Of a stretch of DNA of 26,280 nucleotides, positions 1,144 through 18,552 are shown piece by piece. The DNA lies in the IMG/VR virus record IMGVR_UViG_3300047301_000113, positions 1 through 26,280 of that record. One strand, given 5' to 3'. Under the pieces are notes generated by a model. That model was not told the DNA's origin. It worked only from the letters and a program-made list of their open reading frames with translations, and ran no database searches. The DNA is from a virus (taxonomy: Duplodnaviria > Caudoviricetes). Both the position numbers and the translations under genes were made by a program. Numbering within the stretch: the stretch's first letter is position 1; every line of letters starts with the position of its first letter.

Positions 1144-1153
1144 TTTTCTGCTC

Positions 1154-1336
1154 CTAATGCGCTAGATAAAGCGTTTCGACTACAACAGCATCAAGCATTT
1201 TTGTTTTCGCCAACGCGACTTCGCTTGCGTGATACGCACTAAATGCCTCGATTGTGACAAATGAACTGCTCAGCGTTAAAACCCCTTTCACTGATCTTTC
1301 GCCGGTCAACTGCACTTGATATTTAGCTTTTTCCAT
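1154..1336 (-). CDS. Hypothetical protein (60 aa)
   Basis: GGAG RBS 8 nt upstream of the ATG; lies in the leftward operon. Confidence 0.65.
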   Translation of the reverse strand: MEKAKYQVQLTGERSVKGVLTLSSSFVTIEAFSAYHASEVALAKTKMLDAVVVETLYLAH

Positions 1337-1496
1337 TATCTTTCTCCGCTTTTTTCGCTGGAATTTTTAGCGTCAACACGCCTTGTTGTTCATTGTGCTT
1401 GACCCAATCGACATCAGTGATTGGGGTATTAAGCGTTAAAACCCCTTTCACTGATCTTTCGCCGGTCAACTGCACTTGATATTTAGCTTTTTCCAT
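1272..1496. repeat. Exact 65-bp direct repeat (1272-1336 and 1432-1496)
   Basis: agcgttaaaacccctttcactgatctttcgccggtcaactgcacttgatatttagctttttccat occurs twice with a 160-bp offset. Confidence 0.95.
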
Positions 1497-1508
1497 ATCT
1501 CCATTCAT
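1323..1508 (-). CDS. Hypothetical chimeric protein (61 aa) sharing 22 residues with the downstream ORF
   Basis: GGAGG RBS, ATGA overlap with the upstream gene; contains one copy of the 65-bp repeat. Confidence 0.55.
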   Translation of the reverse strand: MNGDMEKAKYQVQLTGERSVKGVLTLNTPITDVDWVKHNEQQGVLTLKIPAKKAEKDNGKS

Positions 1509-1792
1509 TCATCACCTCCAACACCGTAAAACTTTTCCGCAAATCCTACCCCTGCTTCAAACCCACAATCCCATTCGGTACTCAAAGGATCGCGCTTTGG
1601 TGGCGAGGTGTCACTAAACCCTTGTTTATACCCTTTCTCGTACCATTCAATTTTTATCACTGCTATGTCTGACTCTTGCTTAGATTGGGCGAGCAGTTCT
1701 TCTATCTCCTCACGCAACATATTGCAATTATCTCTATCGCCATCTAAATCTTCCCAGACTTTTCTTAGCAACTCTCTTTCTTTACTTTTCAT
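1505..1792 (-). CDS. Hypothetical phage protein (95 aa)
   Basis: ATGA-coupled on both sides, GAGG RBS. Confidence 0.75.
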   Translation of the reverse strand: MKSKERELLRKVWEDLDGDRDNCNMLREEIEELLAQSKQESDIAVIKIEWYEKGYKQGFSDTSPPKRDPLSTEWDCGFEAGVGFAEKFYGVGGDE

Positions 1793-1989
1793 AATTCCTC
1801 ACTCAAAGGCTCGCATTCTGGTAGTGACGTGTAAACAATTCGCACAGTTGCACTCCCCATGCGCTTGTTGTAATCATAGCTTTGCTTTTTTTGGTCAATC
1901 CAAGAGCCATCCGGCTTTTGATACTGATAAATTTCCACAGGCCCTACCTTATTCCCAACCTGGTCATCATATTCTCCGATTGTCCACAT
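1789..1989 (-). CDS. Hypothetical phage protein (probable start MWTIGEY at 1989)
   Basis: ORF 1789..2037 in the track; the ATG at 1989 minimises overlap with the upstream gene. Start uncertain. Confidence 0.55.
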   Translation of the reverse strand: MWTIGEYDDQVGNKVGPVEIYQYQKPDGSWIDQKKQSYDYNKRMGSATVRIVYTSLPECEPLSEEL

Positions 1990-2182
1990 GATCGCTACCA
2001 AGCTTGTCAGTAGCACTAACGCCAGCACTGCTACCAAACATCAGTATCGCGGCAACAACAACAATAAAAACAAACGTCACAAACGCAATCAGCATGCGAG
2101 ACATCAGATGACTAAAGCTCAACTCATCGTCAAAATGAGATTGATTTTGTTTTTGATCGACCATGATAATTTTAATTGGCAT
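1967..2182 (-). CDS. Small single-pass membrane protein
   Basis: AAGGA RBS; hydrophobic stretch LIAFVTFVFIVVVAAILMF. Confidence 0.65.
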   Translation of the reverse strand: MPIKIIMVDQKQNQSHFDDELSFSHLMSRMLIAFVTFVFIVVVAAILMFGSSAGVSATDKLGSDHVDNRRI

Positions 2183-2197
2183 AATAATCCTTGGTTG

Positions 2198-2920
2198 TTA
2201 GTTAACGCCCGAGATCAGCATCTCAGACAACTTTGTAATGCCCTTAGGTAGCAGCAGCACTTGCTCAACCACTTTTTCACTGCCGTCTGAGCGCGTTACG
2301 GTGGTGATTTTGTGCTCGACTAGCCCTTGCTGGATTTTGTCTTGATAGCCCAACCAGTTTTTGCCCCCTGCGCGCTTGTAGATCCAATGCACTTCTTGCA
2401 AAAATGAAAACAGTTTTTTGGGCTGCATTTTTAACGCTTTGGCGGAATCCGTAATGCACTGGGAACCTTCGCTGGATGAAATCCTGTCAAGCGCGTTGGC
2501 CTTTGGCTCTAGAATTTTTACAGTTGATTCCAGGGCTATTACTTTTTCCGTGTACGTTAGCAATAATCCTCGCATCATCCCCGCGTCACTCAATACCGTG
2601 GCGTAGTCAAACGCAGGCTTTTGCTCCAGCTCCGTCATACGATCATACACAGCCGCCTGCACTTTGTAGTTTTCAGACATCACCATCAAATTTGCTTCGC
2701 GCTTAGGGAGGGCGTAGCATGGTTTTTCCCGTTTGTAAGCGTCAAAATAGATGGCGTTAAATTTTACGGCATCTTTTATGCCTAATACTTTTACTATCTT
2801 TTTCATAAAGTTATCATGCGCTAAAACAGCCGCATCCGCTTCACGCATGTCATTAATGATTTTCACGATCTCAGTTGAGAGCATGGTTTTTGCTGTTGTT
2901 AATGTTGTTAATCCACTCAT
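2198..2920 (-). CDS. Phage antirepressor (Rha-like N-terminus plus KilAC/ANT C-terminus)
   Basis: N-terminal TMLSTEI...HDNFMKKI...Y.D...REKPCY.L; C-terminal LEPKANALDRI...ITDSAKAL...LFSFL...WIYKR...YQDKIQQG...PKGITKL. GAGG RBS. Confidence 0.9.
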   Translation of the reverse strand: MSGLTTLTTAKTMLSTEIVKIINDMREADAAVLAHDNFMKKIVKVLGIKDAVKFNAIYFDAYKREKPCYALPKREANLMVMSENYKVQAAVYDRMTELEQKPAFDYATVLSDAGMMRGLLLTYTEKVIALESTVKILEPKANALDRISSSEGSQCITDSAKALKMQPKKLFSFLQEVHWIYKRAGGKNWLGYQDKIQQGLVEHKITTVTRSDGSEKVVEQVLLLPKGITKLSEMLISGVN

Positions 2921-2947
2921 TTAAACATCCTCATTAGATTAATAAAT

Positions 2948-3339
2948 GCCCGATTCTCACGGGCTTGGTATCTGATACACAATCAGGATGTGTGATAATA
3001 CCTAGTGTCTGCCTATAAAAATTAACCCTTGTTTATAAAGGATAATTTTTATAAAAGCCGCTTACGGTTGCGGCACCAAGCCTTTCGGTTTGGTCGTAGA
3101 AACATCGGCCCCTTTGCTGGTTAGAGCGGAGGAAATTCCGTTTACTGGGCCATGCCCCATCTTGAACTTATATCCCGAGTTTCAAGTACGGTGGAAAAAC
3201 AACTTAGTAAAACCGACTGGCTTGTGTTCATGCGTAAAATCACTAAAAACAACATGGACTGCACGGCTCTTTTTTCGGTGGTCGTGGACACCGGCCAATC
3301 GATTTTTTAAAACACCCTTTATAAAGATGCTTTAAAAAA
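2948..3339 (-). other. Structured non-coding leader with two long AU-rich stems (about 3013-3053 and 3303-3339) and several small hairpins
   Basis: Minus-strand TTTTTTAAAGCATCTTT-ATA-AAGGGTGTTTTAAAAAA pairs fully only as minus-strand RNA, using G-U pairs. TATAAAAATTATCCTTT...AAGGGTTAATTTTTATA is similar. Confidence 0.6.
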
Positions 3340-3354
3340 CCCCGCGTCTGCGGG
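3334..3354 (-). terminator. Intrinsic terminator after the first pL gene (tL1-like)
   Basis: Minus strand CCCGC-AGAC-GCGGG-G-TTTTTT. Confidence 0.7.
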
Positions 3355-3386
3355 AAAGAGGATTCCGCTAATGAGGTCGGAATGGG

Positions 3387-4091
3387 TTAAGCGATTTTCT
3401 TGACTGGCTCTATCGCCGATATAAAACCACTGACTTCTTTATGCAAAAGTGACTTGCGGTCTTCATAAGGAATCTTTGCGCCGATTAATACAGAGTTGCG
3501 GTTTTCGATCTTTGCTAATAGGGTCAGTTCATCAAGGCTTAATGAATCACGATCTCGGCCTTCATAGCTTCCGGTTATGACAAAATTAACCATCCTTGCT
3601 TCATTAGAAAAATGGTAAGACTTTATAACTTTACCGTCTTGCTCCCTAGTAAACTGAACCATGTCGGATTGAAGCTTGTAAGTTGCCGATGAAATATGAC
3701 GAAGCTTTTTTCGATCAAGCTCCATTAATTTTCCAGTTGCGTAGTCGTCGAATACTTTGTAAACCTTAAATTTGAACTCAGGACTTAACCATGCTGCATA
3801 GTCATAAACAAGTTCTTTGCAAACGTAAGTGCCTGAGGCTTTGCCGCCCTTTTTTACTGAAGTTGGAGCTAAGCAGGAATTCTTGCTTAGGTTTTCTTCC
3901 ATAGACATAAAGGCGTTATCCCGCCCTTTTAAATATTCAACCCCTTCTTGTGTTGATTTGTTATTTAACCAAAAAGATGGACGCTTGGTGTTTTCGCTCC
4001 CACTCGCTCTCCATAAATCGGTCAGCGAATAACGACCCTCTGCATCCTGGTGGATGGCAATACTGTCAATTTCAATAATGTTTTTGGGCAT
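3387..4091 (-). CDS. KilA-N domain DNA-binding protein
   Basis: IHQDAEGRYSLTDLWRASG...RPSFWL...GG...GTYVCKELVYDYAAWLSPEFKFKVYKVF. Start moved to ATG 4091 (GGAG RBS, downstream of pL). Confidence 0.92.
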   Translation of the reverse strand: MPKNIIEIDSIAIHQDAEGRYSLTDLWRASGSENTKRPSFWLNNKSTQEGVEYLKGRDNAFMSMEENLSKNSCLAPTSVKKGGKASGTYVCKELVYDYAAWLSPEFKFKVYKVFDDYATGKLMELDRKKLRHISSATYKLQSDMVQFTREQDGKVIKSYHFSNEARMVNFVITGSYEGRDRDSLSLDELTLLAKIENRNSVLIGAKIPYEDRKSLLHKEVSGFISAIEPVKKIA

Positions 4092-4134
4092 ATCAATCTC
4101 CAGTTCAGTTTCAGCGGTTGGGCTGATGGTTAGT

Positions 4135-4179
4135 ATTATTCGCCGATAGCGAATTAATGTCAACAGCCAATAGCGAATT
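4135..4179 (-). promoter_or_regulatory. pL promoter with two operators (4139-4153, 4163-4177)
   Basis: TTGACA (4163-4158), 17 bp, AATAAT (4140-4135). Operators TTCGCTATCGGCGAA and TTCGCTATTGGCTGT match the pair at pR. Confidence 0.85.
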
Positions 4180-4244
4180 ATTTCAAAAATAAATCACCCA
4201 AGGCGGGCTTTACACTTATTAATACACGCTAAATTTTAGGCAAC

Positions 4245-4267
4245 AAAAAACCCGCCGGAGCGGGTTT
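4245..4267 (-). terminator. Intrinsic terminator of the immunity (cI) transcript
   Basis: Minus strand AAACCCGC-TCCG-GCGGGTTT-TTTGTTG. Confidence 0.8.
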
Positions 4268-4325
4268 GGGGGGGGATTTTGGGCAATAAATGCCACTGCA
4301 AGTTATTACTTAACTATTTAATTAA

Positions 4326-4526
4326 AGCAAGTATGACGCTGAGCTGGATGTTGCTGTGCTTGAAAATAAACAAAGAATTGTCACGCTAACTGCGGTTTTT
4401 AAAGCGCTTGATAGACCCATTCGTGGTAATTCGCGTTTGATCAACATGCCTACATTTATGGATGCAAAGAACCTACAGCCCTTTATTGGCGCAGACTTAA
4501 GCGGTGTGATCAACTATGAGGCTTAG
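4326..4526 (+). pseudogene. Fragment of the N-terminal region of a P63C-domain phage protein
   Basis: Hand translation ...DAELDVAVLENKQRIVTLTAVFKALDRPIRGNSRLINMPTFMDAKNLQPFIGADLSGVINYEA*. Resembles P63C-protein N-termini from memory; no start codon at the 5' end; early stop. Confidence 0.7.
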
Positions 4527-4672
4527 CGATCACTTTCTCTGGCTTCACTTTTACCCACGTCATCTATCTCATCCGCAATATGCTCCAGATCCAGCAGCTC
4601 AAAACGACCAGCGCGAATAAAACCGGCCTGTTCCTGCGCCCACGCAACAATATCCTGGTTATACGTTGTCAC
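4523..4672 (-). pseudogene. Truncated DUF29 family gene (49 aa)
   Basis: AAGGA RBS, GTG start, MTTYNQDIVAWAQEQAGFIRAGRFELLDLEHIADEIDDVGKSEARESDR*. This is the typical DUF29 N-terminus; the LLKW..Q part is missing. Confidence 0.85.
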
Positions 4673-4768
4673 TTTTAATCCTTATATCGATCATACATGC
4701 TGAGCATCTCGCTAAAGCTCAAGCTCAGTGCAAGCTTATGCTCACAAGCGTAATCACTGCACCCCACT

Positions 4769-5194
4769 TTATCCGTTATTAAGCATGGTTTTTTTTACAG
4801 TTTTCACCCCCCCCCCCACATTTTCTGTTGCGGGTGTCAAGGGTTTATTTTCGTTATTTTGGGGTTTATTTTGGGATAACTGATAAATCATTCCGCTCAC
4901 TAATTCCCGTTGCTCATTAGTAAGCCCATTCACATTGACGTAACCTTGCAGGTCAGTCTCTTTGCTTTGTAATGATAAATCTTTTCCAGTCAATAGCCAC
5001 ACAACACAGCAATTAAGTTTTTTAGCTATATCAAGAGCCGTGTCCATAGACGGCAATTTTTCACCATTTACCCAGTCGCTAACGGTCGCTTGTGAACAAC
5101 CAAGCCGCATAGCAAGTTCCTTTTGATTCTTTGGTGGCGCGCCCGATTCTTTCCATGCCCGCTTAAATCGGGCTGCATATTCAGGATATTTCAT
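4769..5194 (-). CDS. cI: CI-like XRE-family repressor, 141 aa, no S24 peptidase domain
   Basis: HTH NQKELAMRLGCSQATVSDWVNGEKLP...IAKKLNCCVVWLLTG; divergent from cro. Start moved to ATG 5194. Confidence 0.88.
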   Translation of the reverse strand: MKYPEYAARFKRAWKESGAPPKNQKELAMRLGCSQATVSDWVNGEKLPSMDTALDIAKKLNCCVVWLLTGKDLSLQSKETDLQGYVNVNGLTNEQRELVSGMIYQLSQNKPQNNENKPLTPATENVGGGVKTVKKTMLNNG

Positions 5195-5267
5195 AAGCTC
5201 ATTATCAACTAAATTCAATTCGCTATTAACTGTTGCTTTTAATTCGCTATCGGCTAATAATAGACAC
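5195..5267. promoter_or_regulatory. Divergent pRM/pR control region with two operators (5219-5233, 5243-5257)
   Basis: pR: TTGCTT (5233-5238), 17 bp, AATAAT (5256-5261). pRM on minus strand: TTAATA, 17 bp, GATAAT (5206-5201). Operators TTCGCTATTAACTGT and TTCGCTATCGGCTAA. Confidence 0.85.
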
Positions 5268-5480
5268 ATGAGCATATTCCTAAAGATTACAGAAAATTAC
5301 GGCAACCAAGAAAAAGCGGCGCGTGCGCTGGGCGTAGCGCCATCAACTTTTTCAGACTGGGTTGCAGGTAAAAAAATACCTAACAAAAAAAACATTCGAG
5401 TACTTATTAGCGCTGGATTCACAGCTAATGAGATAGTGGAAACATGCTTTAACACCGGCTCATCAGATGCCGACCTTTAA
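5268..5480 (+). CDS. cro: Cro-like HTH regulator
   Basis: YGNQEKAARALGVAPSTFSDWVAGKKIP; 70 aa; divergent from cI. Confidence 0.88.
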   Translation: MSIFLKITENYGNQEKAARALGVAPSTFSDWVAGKKIPNKKNIRVLISAGFTANEIVETCFNTGSSDADL

Positions 5481-5506
5481 AATCTGACATAAAAGAGACC
5501 ATCAAC

Positions 5507-5695
5507 ATGGCAAGAGACCTCCGAGAAGAGACCAATTTTAACGCTCAAGAATGGGCGCTGTTCAAAAAAGGCGCGGAGTCAGTAGGCCTGACCAAAGCGA
5601 CTTTTTTACGATTTGCCGCGCTCCAGGTTGCCGAGAAGTATATGCGCGAAGACGCTAAAAAGGCAGCCGAAAGAATCTCGGAATTTGACCGATAG
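5507..5695 (+). CDS. Small DNA-binding protein, probable ribbon-helix-helix, at the cII position
   Basis: Strand then EWALFKKGAESVGLTKATFLRFAAL, an RHH-like pattern. Confidence 0.65.
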   Translation: MARDLREETNFNAQEWALFKKGAESVGLTKATFLRFAALQVAEKYMREDAKKAAERISEFDR

Positions 5696-5709
5696 GTGCT
5701 AATACCTAC

Positions 5710-5982
5710 ATGAAAAACTGCTGCCTTGATTGCACCGACTTCACTAAAGACACCATCGGTTTTGGTGCAGGCATTGGACGCTGTGAATCGTATGAAGCGG
5801 GACTGTTAAAGAATCCCAGTGCTACACAAATCAAACAAGCCAGGATGGCGAGAGGAAATGCCCCGGACTATGGAGTGTTCTGGGGCGGTACGGGGAAAAG
5901 GAGCTGTAAGAAATTTCAAGCAAAAAAAAAGCCCTGCATCCGAGAAGATTCACAGGGCTTTAAAATTCAACTAACGAGGTAA
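5710..5982 (+). CDS. Hypothetical Cys-containing protein
   Basis: AGGTG RBS; CCLDC...GIGRC...C..F pattern, possibly metal-binding. Confidence 0.7.
   Translation: MKNCCLDCTDFTKDTIGFGAGIGRCESYEAGLLKNPSATQIKQARMARGNAPDYGVFWGGTGKRSCKKFQAKKKPCIREDSQGFKIQLTR
5922..5975 (-). ncRNA. Putative OOP-like antisense small RNA
   Basis: Minus-strand extended -10 TGGTATAAT (5990-5982), followed by AAGCCCTGTG...GCAGGGC-TTTTTTTTT terminator; same position as lambda oop. Confidence 0.55.
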
Positions 5983-11274: not shown

Positions 11275-11408
11275 TGAGCGCTATTTTTGCTGAGATAATC
11301 TGGTTTTTTGTTTTGTTAGCTACGTTTTTAGTGGTTATCCCTATGGGATTTATTGTGATTAGTTTGGATTATTTGATTGAGGAGGCGTGGATGTGGATGT
11401 CAAAATAA
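11274..11408 (+). CDS. 44-aa membrane microprotein
   Basis: Hand translation MSAIFAEIIWFFVLLATFLVVIPMGFIVISLDYLIEEAWMWMSK; GGAG RBS. Confidence 0.55.
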   Translation: MSAIFAEIIWFFVLLATFLVVIPMGFIVISLDYLIEEAWMWMSK

Positions 11409-11502
11409 CAAAGCTTTGCAAAAGCTGCTGCTCTATAACAAAAAATGATGAAAAAAACCCGTATGAGTAACGAAAAAAGGAAATCGGCGATGAACACTAA
11501 TT

Positions 11503-11706
11503 ATGATTGAGATCTTAATAACGGCACTGCTAGCGGCAGTTTTGATCGCATGGATGCACGAGATTGCTGTGCATTACAAAACAACCAGGCCATGCCAGCA
11601 CCTGGCAAAGCTTAGCTATCACAGCTTAAAATTGCACCAATGCGTGGATTGCGGGGCAAAAATACCGATGGACGATAACACTGCAAAAATAAAACATCAA
11701 CGATGA
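11503..11706 (+). CDS. Small protein with N-terminal hydrophobic segment and C.H / CxxC
   Basis: ORF track; ATGA overlap with the next ORF. Confidence 0.6.
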   Translation: MIEILITALLAAVLIAWMHEIAVHYKTTRPCQHLAKLSYHSLKLHQCVDCGAKIPMDDNTAKIKHQR

Positions 11707-11867
11707 CAAAACCAAGGCTGTGGAAAAACGGCGGGTACTGGATGTGCCGAGTGCTAGGCGATAGTAGCGTGGTATTTTGTGGTGCAGGCGATACACCCAG
11801 TATAGCGTATGCTAACTGGGCTAGGCAGGCAAGAAATAAGGAAGGTTGTAAACAATCCCCGACCTAA
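11703..11867 (+). CDS. Hypothetical 54-aa protein whose last codons come from the inserted element
   Basis: Hand translation MTKPRLWKNGGYWMCRVLGDSSVVFCGAGDTPSIAYANWARQARNKEG|CKQSPT. Confidence 0.6.
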   Translation: MTKPRLWKNGGYWMCRVLGDSSVVFCGAGDTPSIAYANWARQARNKEGCKQSPT

Positions 11868-12012
11868 AGGACGGGGCTTTATGGTAACTAAAATCGTTCC
11901 ACATTAGGACGGCTTGCAGCGCCCCTTGATAGGCTGAAAAGCCTGTCAAACTTAGCGATATTCGACGCCGCATTGACGTTGCTGTGAGATAAGTGACCAC
12001 AGTTTTTACAAT
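11830..12012 (-). ncRNA. Putative TnpB omega-RNA (reRNA) plus flanking guide; ends approximate
   Basis: Promoter TTTATT-17-TATAAT (12045-12017); hairpins TTGACAGGCT-TTTC-AGCCTATCAA, GGGGCG-CTGCAAGC-CGTCCT and the right-end hairpin; guide AACCTTCCTTATTTCTTG. Confidence 0.6.
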
Positions 12013-12105
12013 GATTATTATAGGGCAGAAACAATGCAAAATAAAAGCCAAAAGCACACCATTCCTCCCCGCCCTGAAGGGGGGGGGTCTCCTGGAGCTT
12101 TTCTG
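11848..12105 (-). mobile_element. Non-autonomous IS200/IS605-family mini element (PATE-like), 258 bp
   Basis: Left end: TTCAT|CAGAAAAGCTCCAG-GAGA-C9-TTCA-GGGCGGGG. Right end: AAAG-CCCCGTCC-TTTA-GGTCGGGG-ATTGT-TTAC|. tnpB 3' remnant inside; no target duplication; removal restores RBS+ATG of mor. Confidence 0.9.
11888..12013 (-). pseudogene. tnpB: tnpB 3'-terminal remnant
   Basis: HCKNCGHLSHSNVNAASNIAK matches the TnpB C..CG...(A)D.NAA.NI zinc-finger/RuvC-III motif, with the catalytic D replaced by N. Confidence 0.85.
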
Positions 12106-12483
12106 ATGAAGGCTGCAATAAATCTATTGCCTGAGTCAATCGTAGAAATAATCAGTATAATCGGGGAACACGAGACCGGTCTGCTGATTAAATATTTTTC
12201 TGGTCGGGCCGTATTTTTCCCTAAGAACCCTGGAAAAAACCCTGGCGCGATAAGCCCGTCCTCGTGGGCTACCCTATGCCTACACTTTGGTGGCAGCCTG
12301 GTATTTATTCCACGCTGCCACAAATCGCTGTTACATAGCAGGAATCAGCGAATAAAAGCGGACAGGAGCAACGGCTTGTCTATTGCTGAATTAACTGGAA
12401 AGTACACGTTAACCGACCGGCAAATCTTTTCTATCCTCGGCAAAGAAGTAAACGCCCAACAAAATGACCTGTTTTGTCTTTAG
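12106..12483 (+). CDS. mor: Mor/C-family transcription activator (late-gene activator)
   Basis: LLPES..EI...IG......L...F.G..VFFP...HFGGSLVFIPRC...RNQRI...G.SIAEL..KY.LTDRQIFSIL; immediately upstream of lysis genes. Confidence 0.9.
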   Translation: MKAAINLLPESIVEIISIIGEHETGLLIKYFSGRAVFFPKNPGKNPGAISPSSWATLCLHFGGSLVFIPRCHKSLLHSRNQRIKADRSNGLSIAELTGKYTLTDRQIFSILGKEVNAQQNDLFCL

Positions 12484-16856: not shown

Positions 16857-18279
16857 TCCACTCGCTATAGGGCTTAATGTTCCCTTTGCTCAAGCTATCA
16901 AGGCCGCGCAACAGCGCAAAGTTGTTTTACCTGACATTTATTATGGCGAACTGCAAGGGCTTGAGCGTCAACTTGCATTTAGTATTGCGGGCGTTGCTAG
17001 TCTCGATCAATTAACAATAGTCCGTGATTCGTTAGCGGCAAAGCTGCAAAGTGGGCAGACGTTTAATCAATGGAAAAAAGATATACTCGAGTCAGGAACA
17101 CTGGATTTACCCCGGCATAGACTAGATAATATTTTTAGAACCAATATACAGGGCTGTTACAACCGGGGGCGTTGGGAACGCTTTGTTGCGGTAAAAGATG
17201 AGCGGCCTTATCTGATGTATGACGCGATTAATGACAGCCGCGTTAGGCCCTCGCATTTGGCAATGGATAATATCATTAGGCCGGTGGATGATGCGTTCTG
17301 GGCTAGCCACGCGCCGTCCAATGGGTATCGTTGTCGATGTCGGTTAATCTCGCTTACAGCCGAGCAAGCCCAAGCGCGATCAGGAGCAGGACATGGGTTA
17401 AATAAGGCTGTTAATGGCGTGGAAATGGAACCCGATAAAGGCTGGGACTATAATCCCGGACAAGATTTATTGGCAGGGGTTAAGTCGGCAATGGCTAACA
17501 AGCAGGGGAAGAGTGGCCCTGTGTTATTATCGGCGCTTAATACAAAAATAGCCGCTGATATGAAAATAATAACTTTACCCGGTTTCGCTGTTGTCCAAGA
17601 AAAACTAGCCGACATAGCCAGTAAAAACCCTGAATGGTTCCCATTGGGCTACAGTGGGATTCATGCGGTTAGCAATCCTGAACTGTATGCCGCTTTTAAT
17701 CCAGAAAAAGCGCTGTTTTACGTGTCCGCAGCGGATGATCCTGTATTAAATTTTAATGCTGCACAAGAATTAACAGCTGCATTAGAAAGCATTAAAGCAC
17801 AGCGTCCTTTGACATTTAAAAATGAGTACGCCATAGAAACGCTATGGCACGAAATAATTCACGGAATAACTGGGATTGCGCCGGTAGTACGGGAAATCGG
17901 GAAAGACTCTATTCAGGAGGGTGTTGTACAGCTGATAGCGCGGCATAGCTATCACAAGCTGGCTATCGCGCTAGGTTATTCAGCAGCGCATCAAAGCGCA
18001 ATTATTAATGGAGGTTATGCCTACCGCCAAGCGACGGGGAACCTTTTATCGATGGCGGATATGGCGGGGGTGGATGTATTTTCATTCGCCGAATTAATCA
18101 TCAAAGAAAGCAACGATTGGCGGCTGATTTTGTCGCAATTATTGGCGGACGGGATGAACCTGAAAGCAGCAGATATGCAGCCGCTATTTAATCAAGCTGA
18201 GCGAATAAACACAGGTGACTTTAAAGAGAAAATTAAGGTAAAAATCAGGAATGCCCGGCGCAACAAGGGCGCATTGTAA
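16840..18279 (+). CDS. MuF (Mu gp30/SPP1 gp7-like) minor head protein with C-terminal HExxH extension
   Basis: RLDNIFRTN...RPYLMYDAINDSRVRPSH...DDAFW...P.NGYRCRC...PDKGWDYNPG, then about 270 more residues with LWHEIIHG...IQEG. Confidence 0.92.
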   Translation: MPMPGDPLAIGLNVPFAQAIKAAQQRKVVLPDIYYGELQGLERQLAFSIAGVASLDQLTIVRDSLAAKLQSGQTFNQWKKDILESGTLDLPRHRLDNIFRTNIQGCYNRGRWERFVAVKDERPYLMYDAINDSRVRPSHLAMDNIIRPVDDAFWASHAPSNGYRCRCRLISLTAEQAQARSGAGHGLNKAVNGVEMEPDKGWDYNPGQDLLAGVKSAMANKQGKSGPVLLSALNTKIAADMKIITLPGFAVVQEKLADIASKNPEWFPLGYSGIHAVSNPELYAAFNPEKALFYVSAADDPVLNFNAAQELTAALESIKAQRPLTFKNEYAIETLWHEIIHGITGIAPVVREIGKDSIQEGVVQLIARHSYHKLAIALGYSAAHQSAIINGGYAYRQATGNLLSMADMAGVDVFSFAELIIKESNDWRLILSQLLADGMNLKAADMQPLFNQAERINTGDFKEKIKVKIRNARRNKGAL

Positions 18280-18514
18280 GTTGACGACGAAAGCTGCCGT
18301 CTTCAATCTGATTTAGAAAAAACGCCGCTTTATTTTCATCGTGACGCATCGTATAAAGGCGAAATAAATCAGCATAGGCGCTATCTTGGCTTAGCGCATA
18401 AAAATATTCTTCCCTAGTTTCAGGGTAGCCGTCGGTTAATTGCAATATTTCAGCATCGGTAATACTGTGATCGTAAATAGTTTCTATATGACTTTCTTTA
18501 ACAACAGCATTCAT
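18245..18514 (-). CDS. 89-aa hypothetical protein convergent with muF; candidate immunity/moron gene
   Basis: GGAGG RBS (18525-18521), ATG 18514, extended -10 TGCTATACT (18549-18541); fills the muF-gpG gap. Confidence 0.8.
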   Translation of the reverse strand: MNAVVKESHIETIYDHSITDAEILQLTDGYPETREEYFYALSQDSAYADLFRLYTMRHDENKAAFFLNQIEDGSFRRQLTMRPCCAGHS

Positions 18515-18552
18515 GGCGCGCCTCCAATAATTCAACTTTGAGTATAGCACAA

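Follow-up and report, generated by a model that had tools for sequence, protein, structure and literature searches.

Small derivatives of IS200/IS605 elements that carry no genes have been described before, as has RNA-guided homing between replicons. The PATE-like IS605 derivatives of G. stearothermophilus keep both element ends and the omega-RNA region and need TnpA and TnpB in trans; TnpB is described as cutting the donor joint, so that the element is retained, and the role expected of PATEs is that of omega-RNA donors in trans (Meers et al., bioRxiv 10.1101/2023.03.14.532601). A 271-nt PATE-like element of Halanaerobium hydrogeniformans consists of a left-end hairpin, a tnpB tail and a right end (PMC7290912). 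A separate category has been named for homing onto co-resident plasmids or phages, described for TnpB-encoding plasmid elements (PMC13565253), and TldR prophage repressors place a phage-borne guide RNA of TnpB type at a regulatory junction (bioRxiv 10.1101/2023.11.30.569447).

Here we analyse a 258-bp insert in a 26,280-base virus record (the window), which lies between the purine-rich ribosome-binding site and the ATG of a Mor-family activator gene. Its layout is nearly that of the H. hydrogeniformans element and, like the PATEs, it is gene-less and would need both proteins in trans; unlike them, it sits in a phage, on a start codon, with the tnpB promoter fused directly to the omega-RNA region. 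With IS608, ISDra2 and the tnpB-only IS1341-type elements it shares subterminal hairpins with guide tetranucleotides at their feet, insertion 3' of a fixed motif without duplication and a right-end omega-RNA with a pseudoknot. IS608 uses TTAC and TCAA and ISDra2 targets TTGAT, whereas here the target is TTCAT, the end is TTAC and tnpB is deleted. By its sequence the element forms a new family from Methylococcaceae. The original prediction had seen in it a stand-alone guide-RNA cassette aimed at the mor start of element-free phages. We put the probability at about 0.74 that it is instead a decaying PATE-like derivative of an IS1341-type element, one copy of a mini element present many times in a Methylococcaceae genome. 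The phage copy is probably an ordinary transposon relic rather than a purpose-built anti-phage weapon.

Anatomy of the insert

The insert is an IS200/IS605 element with tnpB deleted, and its anatomy is as first described (Table 1). It contains no intact ORF, and its ends are common to the full-length parent. The guide tetranucleotides AAAG and GAGA were found at the feet of the two hairpins; the extra C that the original prediction allowed for proved private to the phage copy. AAAG with TTAC is a guide/cleavage pair quoted for IS608 (PMC5934647); the pairing of GAGA with TCAT would hold if positions 1, 2 and 4 of the guide are those that read the cleavage site, a rule derived from two IS608 pairs. 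Comparison of the filled site with an element-free related contig (L001) revealed no target duplication. The zinc-finger remnant of TnpB matches PF07282 at E=0.008, below the cut-off.

Table 1 Features of the insert and its surroundings, in window coordinates
Feature	Position	Strand	Remark
Small upstream ORF, now ending inside the element	11703..11867	+	
Predicted guide, flanking phage DNA	11830..11847	-	over mor's original ribosome-binding site (+ 11838-11845)
Gene-less IS200/IS605 (IS1341-type) mini element, PATE-like, 258 bp	11848..12105	-	matches G001 copies
Omega-RNA core	11848..11949	-	covariation across 19 sequences
Omega-RNA stem	11949-11926	-	
Omega-RNA nexus stem	11924-11907	-	
Pseudoknot	GCAAGC (11917-11912) with GTTTAC (11853-11848)	-	
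Guide tetranucleotide, right-end hairpin and TTAC end	AAAG 11880-11877; hairpin 11876-11857	-	
Last 40 codons of tnpB (zinc finger, RuvC-III motif) and stop	11888..12010	-	D of SDVNA reads N in phage copy
Deletion junction, internal TCAT (12014-12011) joined to zinc-finger TGT	12010..12014	-	
Promoter-like site TTTATT (12045-12040)-17-TATAAT (12022-12017)	12017..12045	-	native to tnpB
Outward 24-codon frame	12034..12105	+	upstream ATG at 12034
Left-end hairpin and guide tetranucleotide GAGA (12091-12088)	12067..12091	-	
TTCAT target motif and predicted TnpB TAM	12106..12110	-	ATGAA start of mor on + strand
Mor-family activator gene	12106..12483	+	PF08765, E=3e-10

The absence of tnpA and of nearly all of tnpB, and a promoter close to a tail of some 165 nt, had been read correctly from the letters: 163 nt remain from the deletion junction, placed at 12011/12010 by comparison with full-length copies, to the right end. 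That the deletion fused promoter and tail is right insofar as the two now adjoin; the promoter, however, is native to tnpB. In full-length copies the -35 box is TTGATT, 17 nt from TATAAT, and the tnpB ATG follows 8 nt past the -10 box, and a promoter created by the deletion was rejected because it already exists in these copies. A consensus promoter scan missed the phage site because its -35 box has only three of six matches. The G-to-T change in this box, at element position 63, is found in nine mini-type copies, while ten full-type copies have G. Full elements have TTCC before the zinc-finger TGT, the junction is without microhomology, and contigs of the DNA runs show loose ends at 12011. 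The deletion also joins the left cleavage motif, TCAT, to the base after TTCC, which is one letter off the right cleavage motif, TTAC; in this one case, read post hoc, the arrangement resembles a donor joint that TnpA made within the element.

Directly downstream of mor are lysozyme, holin and terminase genes and then Mu-type head genes, and a CI-like repressor, DnaB and SSB are encoded further upstream in the record. We infer from this position that mor is the late activator. Between the gpF-like and virion-morphogenesis genes, on the strand opposite to the head genes, is a 101-aa ORF (18248-18550, minus strand) with only a weak match, to DUF6947 (E=0.08).

Copies and full-length parents in a Methylococcaceae genome

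A 24-nt right-end motif was found at 17 contig ends of one Methylococcaceae MAG (G001) and in one metagenome contig, with no hits among the viral contigs. Searched with the whole insert, G001 gave 38 matches from the 40 of 197 candidates scored. Among the 33 matches examined, ten span the same deletion junction, giving at least ten mini copies, and another ten are left ends of the full type that continue into the N-terminal part of TnpB. One copy (L020, on contig C138) is covered over all 258 nt and is 97% identical to the phage copy. Against plasmids and phages the element gave only short matches to its end hairpins, none covering 80%. Because the junction and the -35 change are shared, the supposed stand-alone cassette arose once within the element family, and the phage holds one copy of it; the same anatomy at many host sites argues against a design specific to the phage. 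Judged from these copies, the mini element most likely originated in the bacterium and then spread.

Full-length tnpB elements with the same ends and a TTCAT target, for which a search of the host had been proposed, do exist: besides the full-length tnpB left ends in G001 there is a complete, parent-like copy (L019), about 1.27 kb long. Its TnpB has 374 aa (NF040570, 182 bits) and retains all three acidic motifs of RuvC, near residues 182, 265 and 345. The tnpB of G001 is represented solely by fragments of its N- and C-terminal parts, located at the ends of contigs and about 91% identical to the L019 protein, and of 301 genomes of the order to which G001 belongs, one alone has the element near full length. 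The suggestion that a dead TnpB might use the phage guide for repression thus found no footing, as no dead TnpB was found and the full-length relative retains its acidic motifs. The locus resembles the TldR systems in having a guide RNA of TnpB type carried by a phage at a regulatory junction; it differs in that the guide is the copy's own flank rather than a fixed, domesticated one, and a TldR repressor was rejected on the grounds that the element has no tldR or other tnpB-type gene and that the L019 catalytic motifs are kept.

Many unrelated flanks surround the element in contigs of four DNA runs, and these show its past mobility. A cognate tnpA was not found among six Y1_Tnp matches in the fragmented MAG; the nearest of them has a frameshift and is 34% identical to the tnpA that neighbours a related tnpB, and more distant relatives of the element have tnpA in tandem. 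Contig depth, which sums over organisms and is not a copy number, is 16- to 200-fold higher over the element than over the phage flanks in X1 (1,144-3,079 against about 72), X3 (10,156-37,253 against 176) and X6 (2,255-5,880 against about 29); in X5 the values are 14-80 and under 5.

So deep a repeat in the same samples could have been stitched into the phage contig by assembly, and the phage-specific bases inside the element are indeed absent from contigs. Contigs drop rare variants, however; the junctions are precise at TTCAT and TTAC; and one X1 contig runs from 11300 to 11875 without a difference, reaching 28 nt into the element, just under the 31 nt set as the rule for bridging. We give an assembly chimera next to no weight.

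The phage itself likely infects a methane-oxidising bacterium of the Methylococcaceae. This link is drawn because the element is shared, because four phage genes have 75-86% DNA matches in G001, and because Mor homologues (32-45%) occur in 13 of 301 genomes of the family of G001. A terminase search returned one distant locus that was uninformative on the host. The element thereby ties a freshwater phage (runs with a small share were left out of the habitat naming) to a likely methanotroph host.

Insertion at start codons

Among 18 distinct left flanks in G001, 17 are TTCAT and one is ATCAT, all 18 thus sharing TCAT. At six of the 18 insertions a frame of at least 150 aa opens at the flanking ATG, and four of these six frames have Pfam hits (LpxK, a receiver-LuxR regulator, an aminotransferase and an outer-membrane efflux protein) that begin near the N-terminus or fit the whole protein. 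In one case (L039:496-1500, on G001 contig C189) the gene on whose start codon a mini copy directly sits is intact and lpxK-like (Pfam LpxK, E=1e-105). lpxK is usually needed for lipid A synthesis.

The landing on the mor start follows from the target, because TTCAT is the reverse of ATGAA. Using a crude, ORF-based classification of ATGAA sites, we counted 55 start-like ones among 1089 in 400 kb of G001, a background that 6/18 exceeds (p=2e-4); by the same classification, 55 of the 268 ATGAA sites outside long ORFs are start-like, and 6/18 is not above this (p=0.15). The target motif together with the purging of intragenic insertions is therefore sufficient, and with 17 of 18 flanks TTCAT and a third of the insertions on start codons, the landing on the mor ATG needs no aim. 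We accordingly rejected the start-codon landing as a sign of aiming, and the claim of a cassette directed at mor finds no support in a mini element that is multi-copy in a bacterium and lands likewise there. A limited literature search found no published account of IS605 elements landing on start codons.

The predicted omega-RNA and the divergence of the phage copy

Compared with shuffled sequences, the 181-nt RNA has a better predicted fold (z -2.65), and a search of Rfam to E=1 gave no match. In the alignment of 19 right ends, 93% of cells in the structure are paired and 18 of 27 pairs show two-sided change, a score reached by none of 500 shuffles and compared with 31-48% in slid controls, although the structure was hand-drawn from the same 19 sequences, which favours its own score. 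For the pseudoknot the family-level figures are 98.2% paired, with both sides changed in three of six pairs. At the level of the family the omega-RNA structure, with its covarying pseudoknot, is thus real, and the family has the make-up of an omega-RNA donor acting in trans.

The phage copy departs from this family: 7 of its 258 positions are not as in the host majority, compared with 11 of 4681 (0.23%) among host copies, a divergence about 12-fold higher that makes it the most diverged copy; since the contig ends of the MAG may carry a consensus of host copies, host diversity is possibly understated. Its changes comprise two in the left-end hairpin, two lying upstream of the -35 box, two that fall within the tnpB tail, and a single one in the pseudoknot. 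The GCAAGC/GTTTAC pairing with one mismatch was present where predicted, and the mismatch is private to the phage: a U-A pair, which all 18 other sequences of the alignment retain, has become C-A, and 18 of 18 host copies have T at this position. In the left-end hairpin a G-to-C change (12083) and an extra C (about 12079, absent in 16 of 16 host copies) weaken the predicted DNA fold from -13.4 kcal/mol in a host copy to -9.1. No change affects the -10 box, the two stems or the right-end hairpin.

TnpB systems have the pseudoknot as a conserved feature (PMC10097598), and mutations in it abolished cleavage in another TnpB (bioRxiv 10.1101/2023.11.20.567912). One mismatch among six pairs may only reduce activity. 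On this comparison the phage-copy mutations likely weaken its predicted guide RNA. Nor does the insert look like a conserved phage cassette: it is absent from the one related contig that covers this site, its right-end motif had no hits among the viral contigs, and it is more diverged than the host copies.

The guide and its empty site

The predicted TAM is taken, after Meers et al., to be the insertion target motif. A guide that matches the copy's own empty site is a property of every IS605 copy and so is not specific to the phage. When the guide was compared with the window, with two contigs of related phages and with 400 kb of G001, the only near-match was the empty site in L001/L151, and within those 400 kb of the 2.9-Mb genome there was no off-target. 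This contig, the only related phage contig that covers the site, is 92-94% identical nearby and element-free. Its mor starts with GTG, which puts TTCAC at the TAM position, and the guide is mismatched at positions 11 and 18. The claim that guide and TTCAT together match only the empty allele is thus true in the sense that it is true of every copy, while the empty allele actually seen is GTG/TTCAC, and the proposed search of phages for the guide yielded one near-match, itself with these two mismatches. TnpB and IscB are sensitive to TAM changes (Meers et al.), and double mismatches within positions 1-12 abolish cutting (PMC10097598). The GTG start and the mismatch at guide position 11 make the L001-type allele a poor target.

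Further alleles were few. The L001-type GTG allele also occurs in X3, as a contig of depth 176 (contig 9), and X3 contig 14 has a mor allele starting ATGG, with unrelated DNA upstream; the predicted ATG empty allele with TTCAT was not found among these two element-free allele types. A motif from the upstream flank had two viral hits, L155 (which is L001) and L156, and none in the genome contigs; L156 was rejected as a relative, being a chance 20-mer in an unrelated gene. The 365 pattern hits to mor in the metagenome contigs included no relative, and a capsid search found two contigs, one of which does not reach mor.

RNA contigs over the right end were found in three of four RNA runs compared, with host alleles only. 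The expected guide transcript thus failed to appear: among contigs of four of the six listed RNA runs, which cannot show absence, none carried the phage alleles, flank or guide. In two studies the host-allele RNA contigs end at 11986 and 11991, which hints weakly at a host omega-RNA of roughly 140 nt.

These results bear on whether the phage guide, with a host TnpB, now cuts or represses element-free relatives at the mor start. A promoter-like site, scaffold and guide are all in place, full-length TnpB parents occur in the likely host and in the same samples, and action in trans is what Meers et al. expect of PATE omega-RNAs. We nevertheless regard a currently active cassette as highly improbable, given the private pseudoknot mismatch, the roughly 12-fold higher divergence, the lack of a matching target or of an RNA contig with phage alleles in the material searched, and, for repression, a related TnpB whose catalytic motifs give no sign of TldR. 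Phage-versus-phage immunity, as first proposed, is hard to reconcile with the most diverged copy of the family, a mismatched pseudoknot and element-free relatives that, where seen, have no TAM. Taken together, the pseudoknot mismatch, the weakened left-end hairpin and the want of a well-matched target make it likely that the phage copy is a weak or inactive guide today.

A cassette active in the past would leave a different record. With host TnpB, the copy could have cut co-infecting element-free phages at the mor start and then homed into them, as a filled allele would cut and convert the empty allele on a co-resident replicon in the described TnpB gene drive (PMC13565253), except that the nuclease here would come from the host. 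Only alleles that had escaped through the TAM would then survive, and the guide RNA would decay without targets. Both element-free mor alleles do have no TTCAT (GTG in L001 and X3 contig 9, ATGG in X3 contig 14), TAM and guide together hold three changes in 23 nt, and non-restorative homing between co-resident replicons has been described (PMC13565253). However, three changes in 23 nt are within chance at the local divergence (p=0.06-0.15), the L001 GTG overlaps the stop of the upstream ORF and may be ancestral, and only one filled phage lineage is known from contigs, the right-end motif having had no viral hits. We consider a past drive unlikely. Its more detailed form, in which survivors of a sweep escaped by ATG-to-GTG and a seed-base change and the winner stayed viable through the element's ribosome-binding site and an in-frame Mor leader, seems to us similarly doubtful. 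If true, it would be a case of RNA-guided homing and start-codon escape between wild phages with a borrowed host nuclease, of which a limited literature search found no report.

The junction with mor

In element-free L001 the stop of the small upstream ORF overlaps the mor GTG, which suggests an old coupled arrangement. The small-ORF region upstream of the element is variable among relatives: in place of about 130-140 nt of the window (11375-11502), L001 and contigs from X1 and X3 have a short sequence that differs.

On the plus strand the element contributes an outward frame whose ATG lies 72 nt ahead of the gene's ATG in the phage, against 71 nt in host copies and 83 nt in L019. The TGA that closes this frame in host copies and L019 overlaps the ATG of the following gene; the phage copy, with its extra base, reads through in frame into Mor and so would give a 24-residue extension. 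A GGAG lies at 12094-12097 (+), 8 nt before the mor ATG, and GGAG/GAGG-like words are found 5-8 nt from the junction in L019, L096, L123, L124 and L126 and are absent in L075 and L076. The outward frame and GGAG may be the reason why such insertions are tolerated, also beside lpxK.

It follows that the copy might be kept for its effect on mor, an outward promoter, the GGAG site and the in-frame extension replacing mor's leader and so changing the timing or level of late gene activation. The spacing of GGAG, the upstream ATG that is in frame in the phage copy only, the similar words near other junctions and the host copy adjoining the lpxK start all agree with this. Yet outward promoter-like sites are at chance level (three found, 2.0 +/- 1.4 expected), the GGAG is predicted to be mostly paired, and the extra base, a single example, lies in a G run, where slips are common. 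We find this role very unlikely.

A probable relic of host transposition

A decaying transposon relic would accommodate these observations as follows. TnpA acting in trans likely moved a host mini element into the phage. In the host, mini copies would be transcribed from the old tnpB promoter into omega-RNA, and host TnpB with this RNA would cut a copy's own empty site, recombination then restoring the copy, as in the retention model of Meers et al. The phage guide would simply be the flank beside which the copy landed. The insertion was presumably tolerated because it is intergenic, and the element's reverse strand may supply Mor with a substitute ribosome-binding site and an upstream frame. 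The element would thus be a tidy example of known IS200/IS605 biology, and it offers a natural test pair in host-type versus phage-type omega-RNA, with filled versus GTG empty allele.

Other IS200/IS605-derived sequences

Several further sequences were observed in G001 and in the full-length copy. A 47-nt, single-hairpin version follows TTCAT on contig C22 (L097:1069-1115), its ends fused via two similar hairpins, and its left-right joint recurs in X3 and X6 contigs. On contig C3 a second, independent and more decayed mini element also follows TTCAT (L096:about 1000-1231); here too a TATAAT box directly adjoins the zinc-finger tail of tnpB, a recurrence hinting that promoter-to-omega-RNA fusions have been selected more than once. 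A mini copy on C138 splits a Y1_Tnp (RAYT-like) gene (L053:165-566), the outward frame of the element continuing in frame into its C-terminal part. Another IS200/IS605-type left end in G001, of different sequence, also has a TTCAT flank (L055:about 1050-1130). In the full-length copies L043-L049 and the relatives L075, L076, L129 and L131 tnpB starts within about 10 nt of a -10-like box and has no ribosome-binding site, which suggests a leaderless tnpB mRNA. Finally, a 341-codon antisense frame (L019:879-1904, minus strand) covers most of the full-length tnpB and ends about 100 nt before the left junction, just ahead of the short outward frame.
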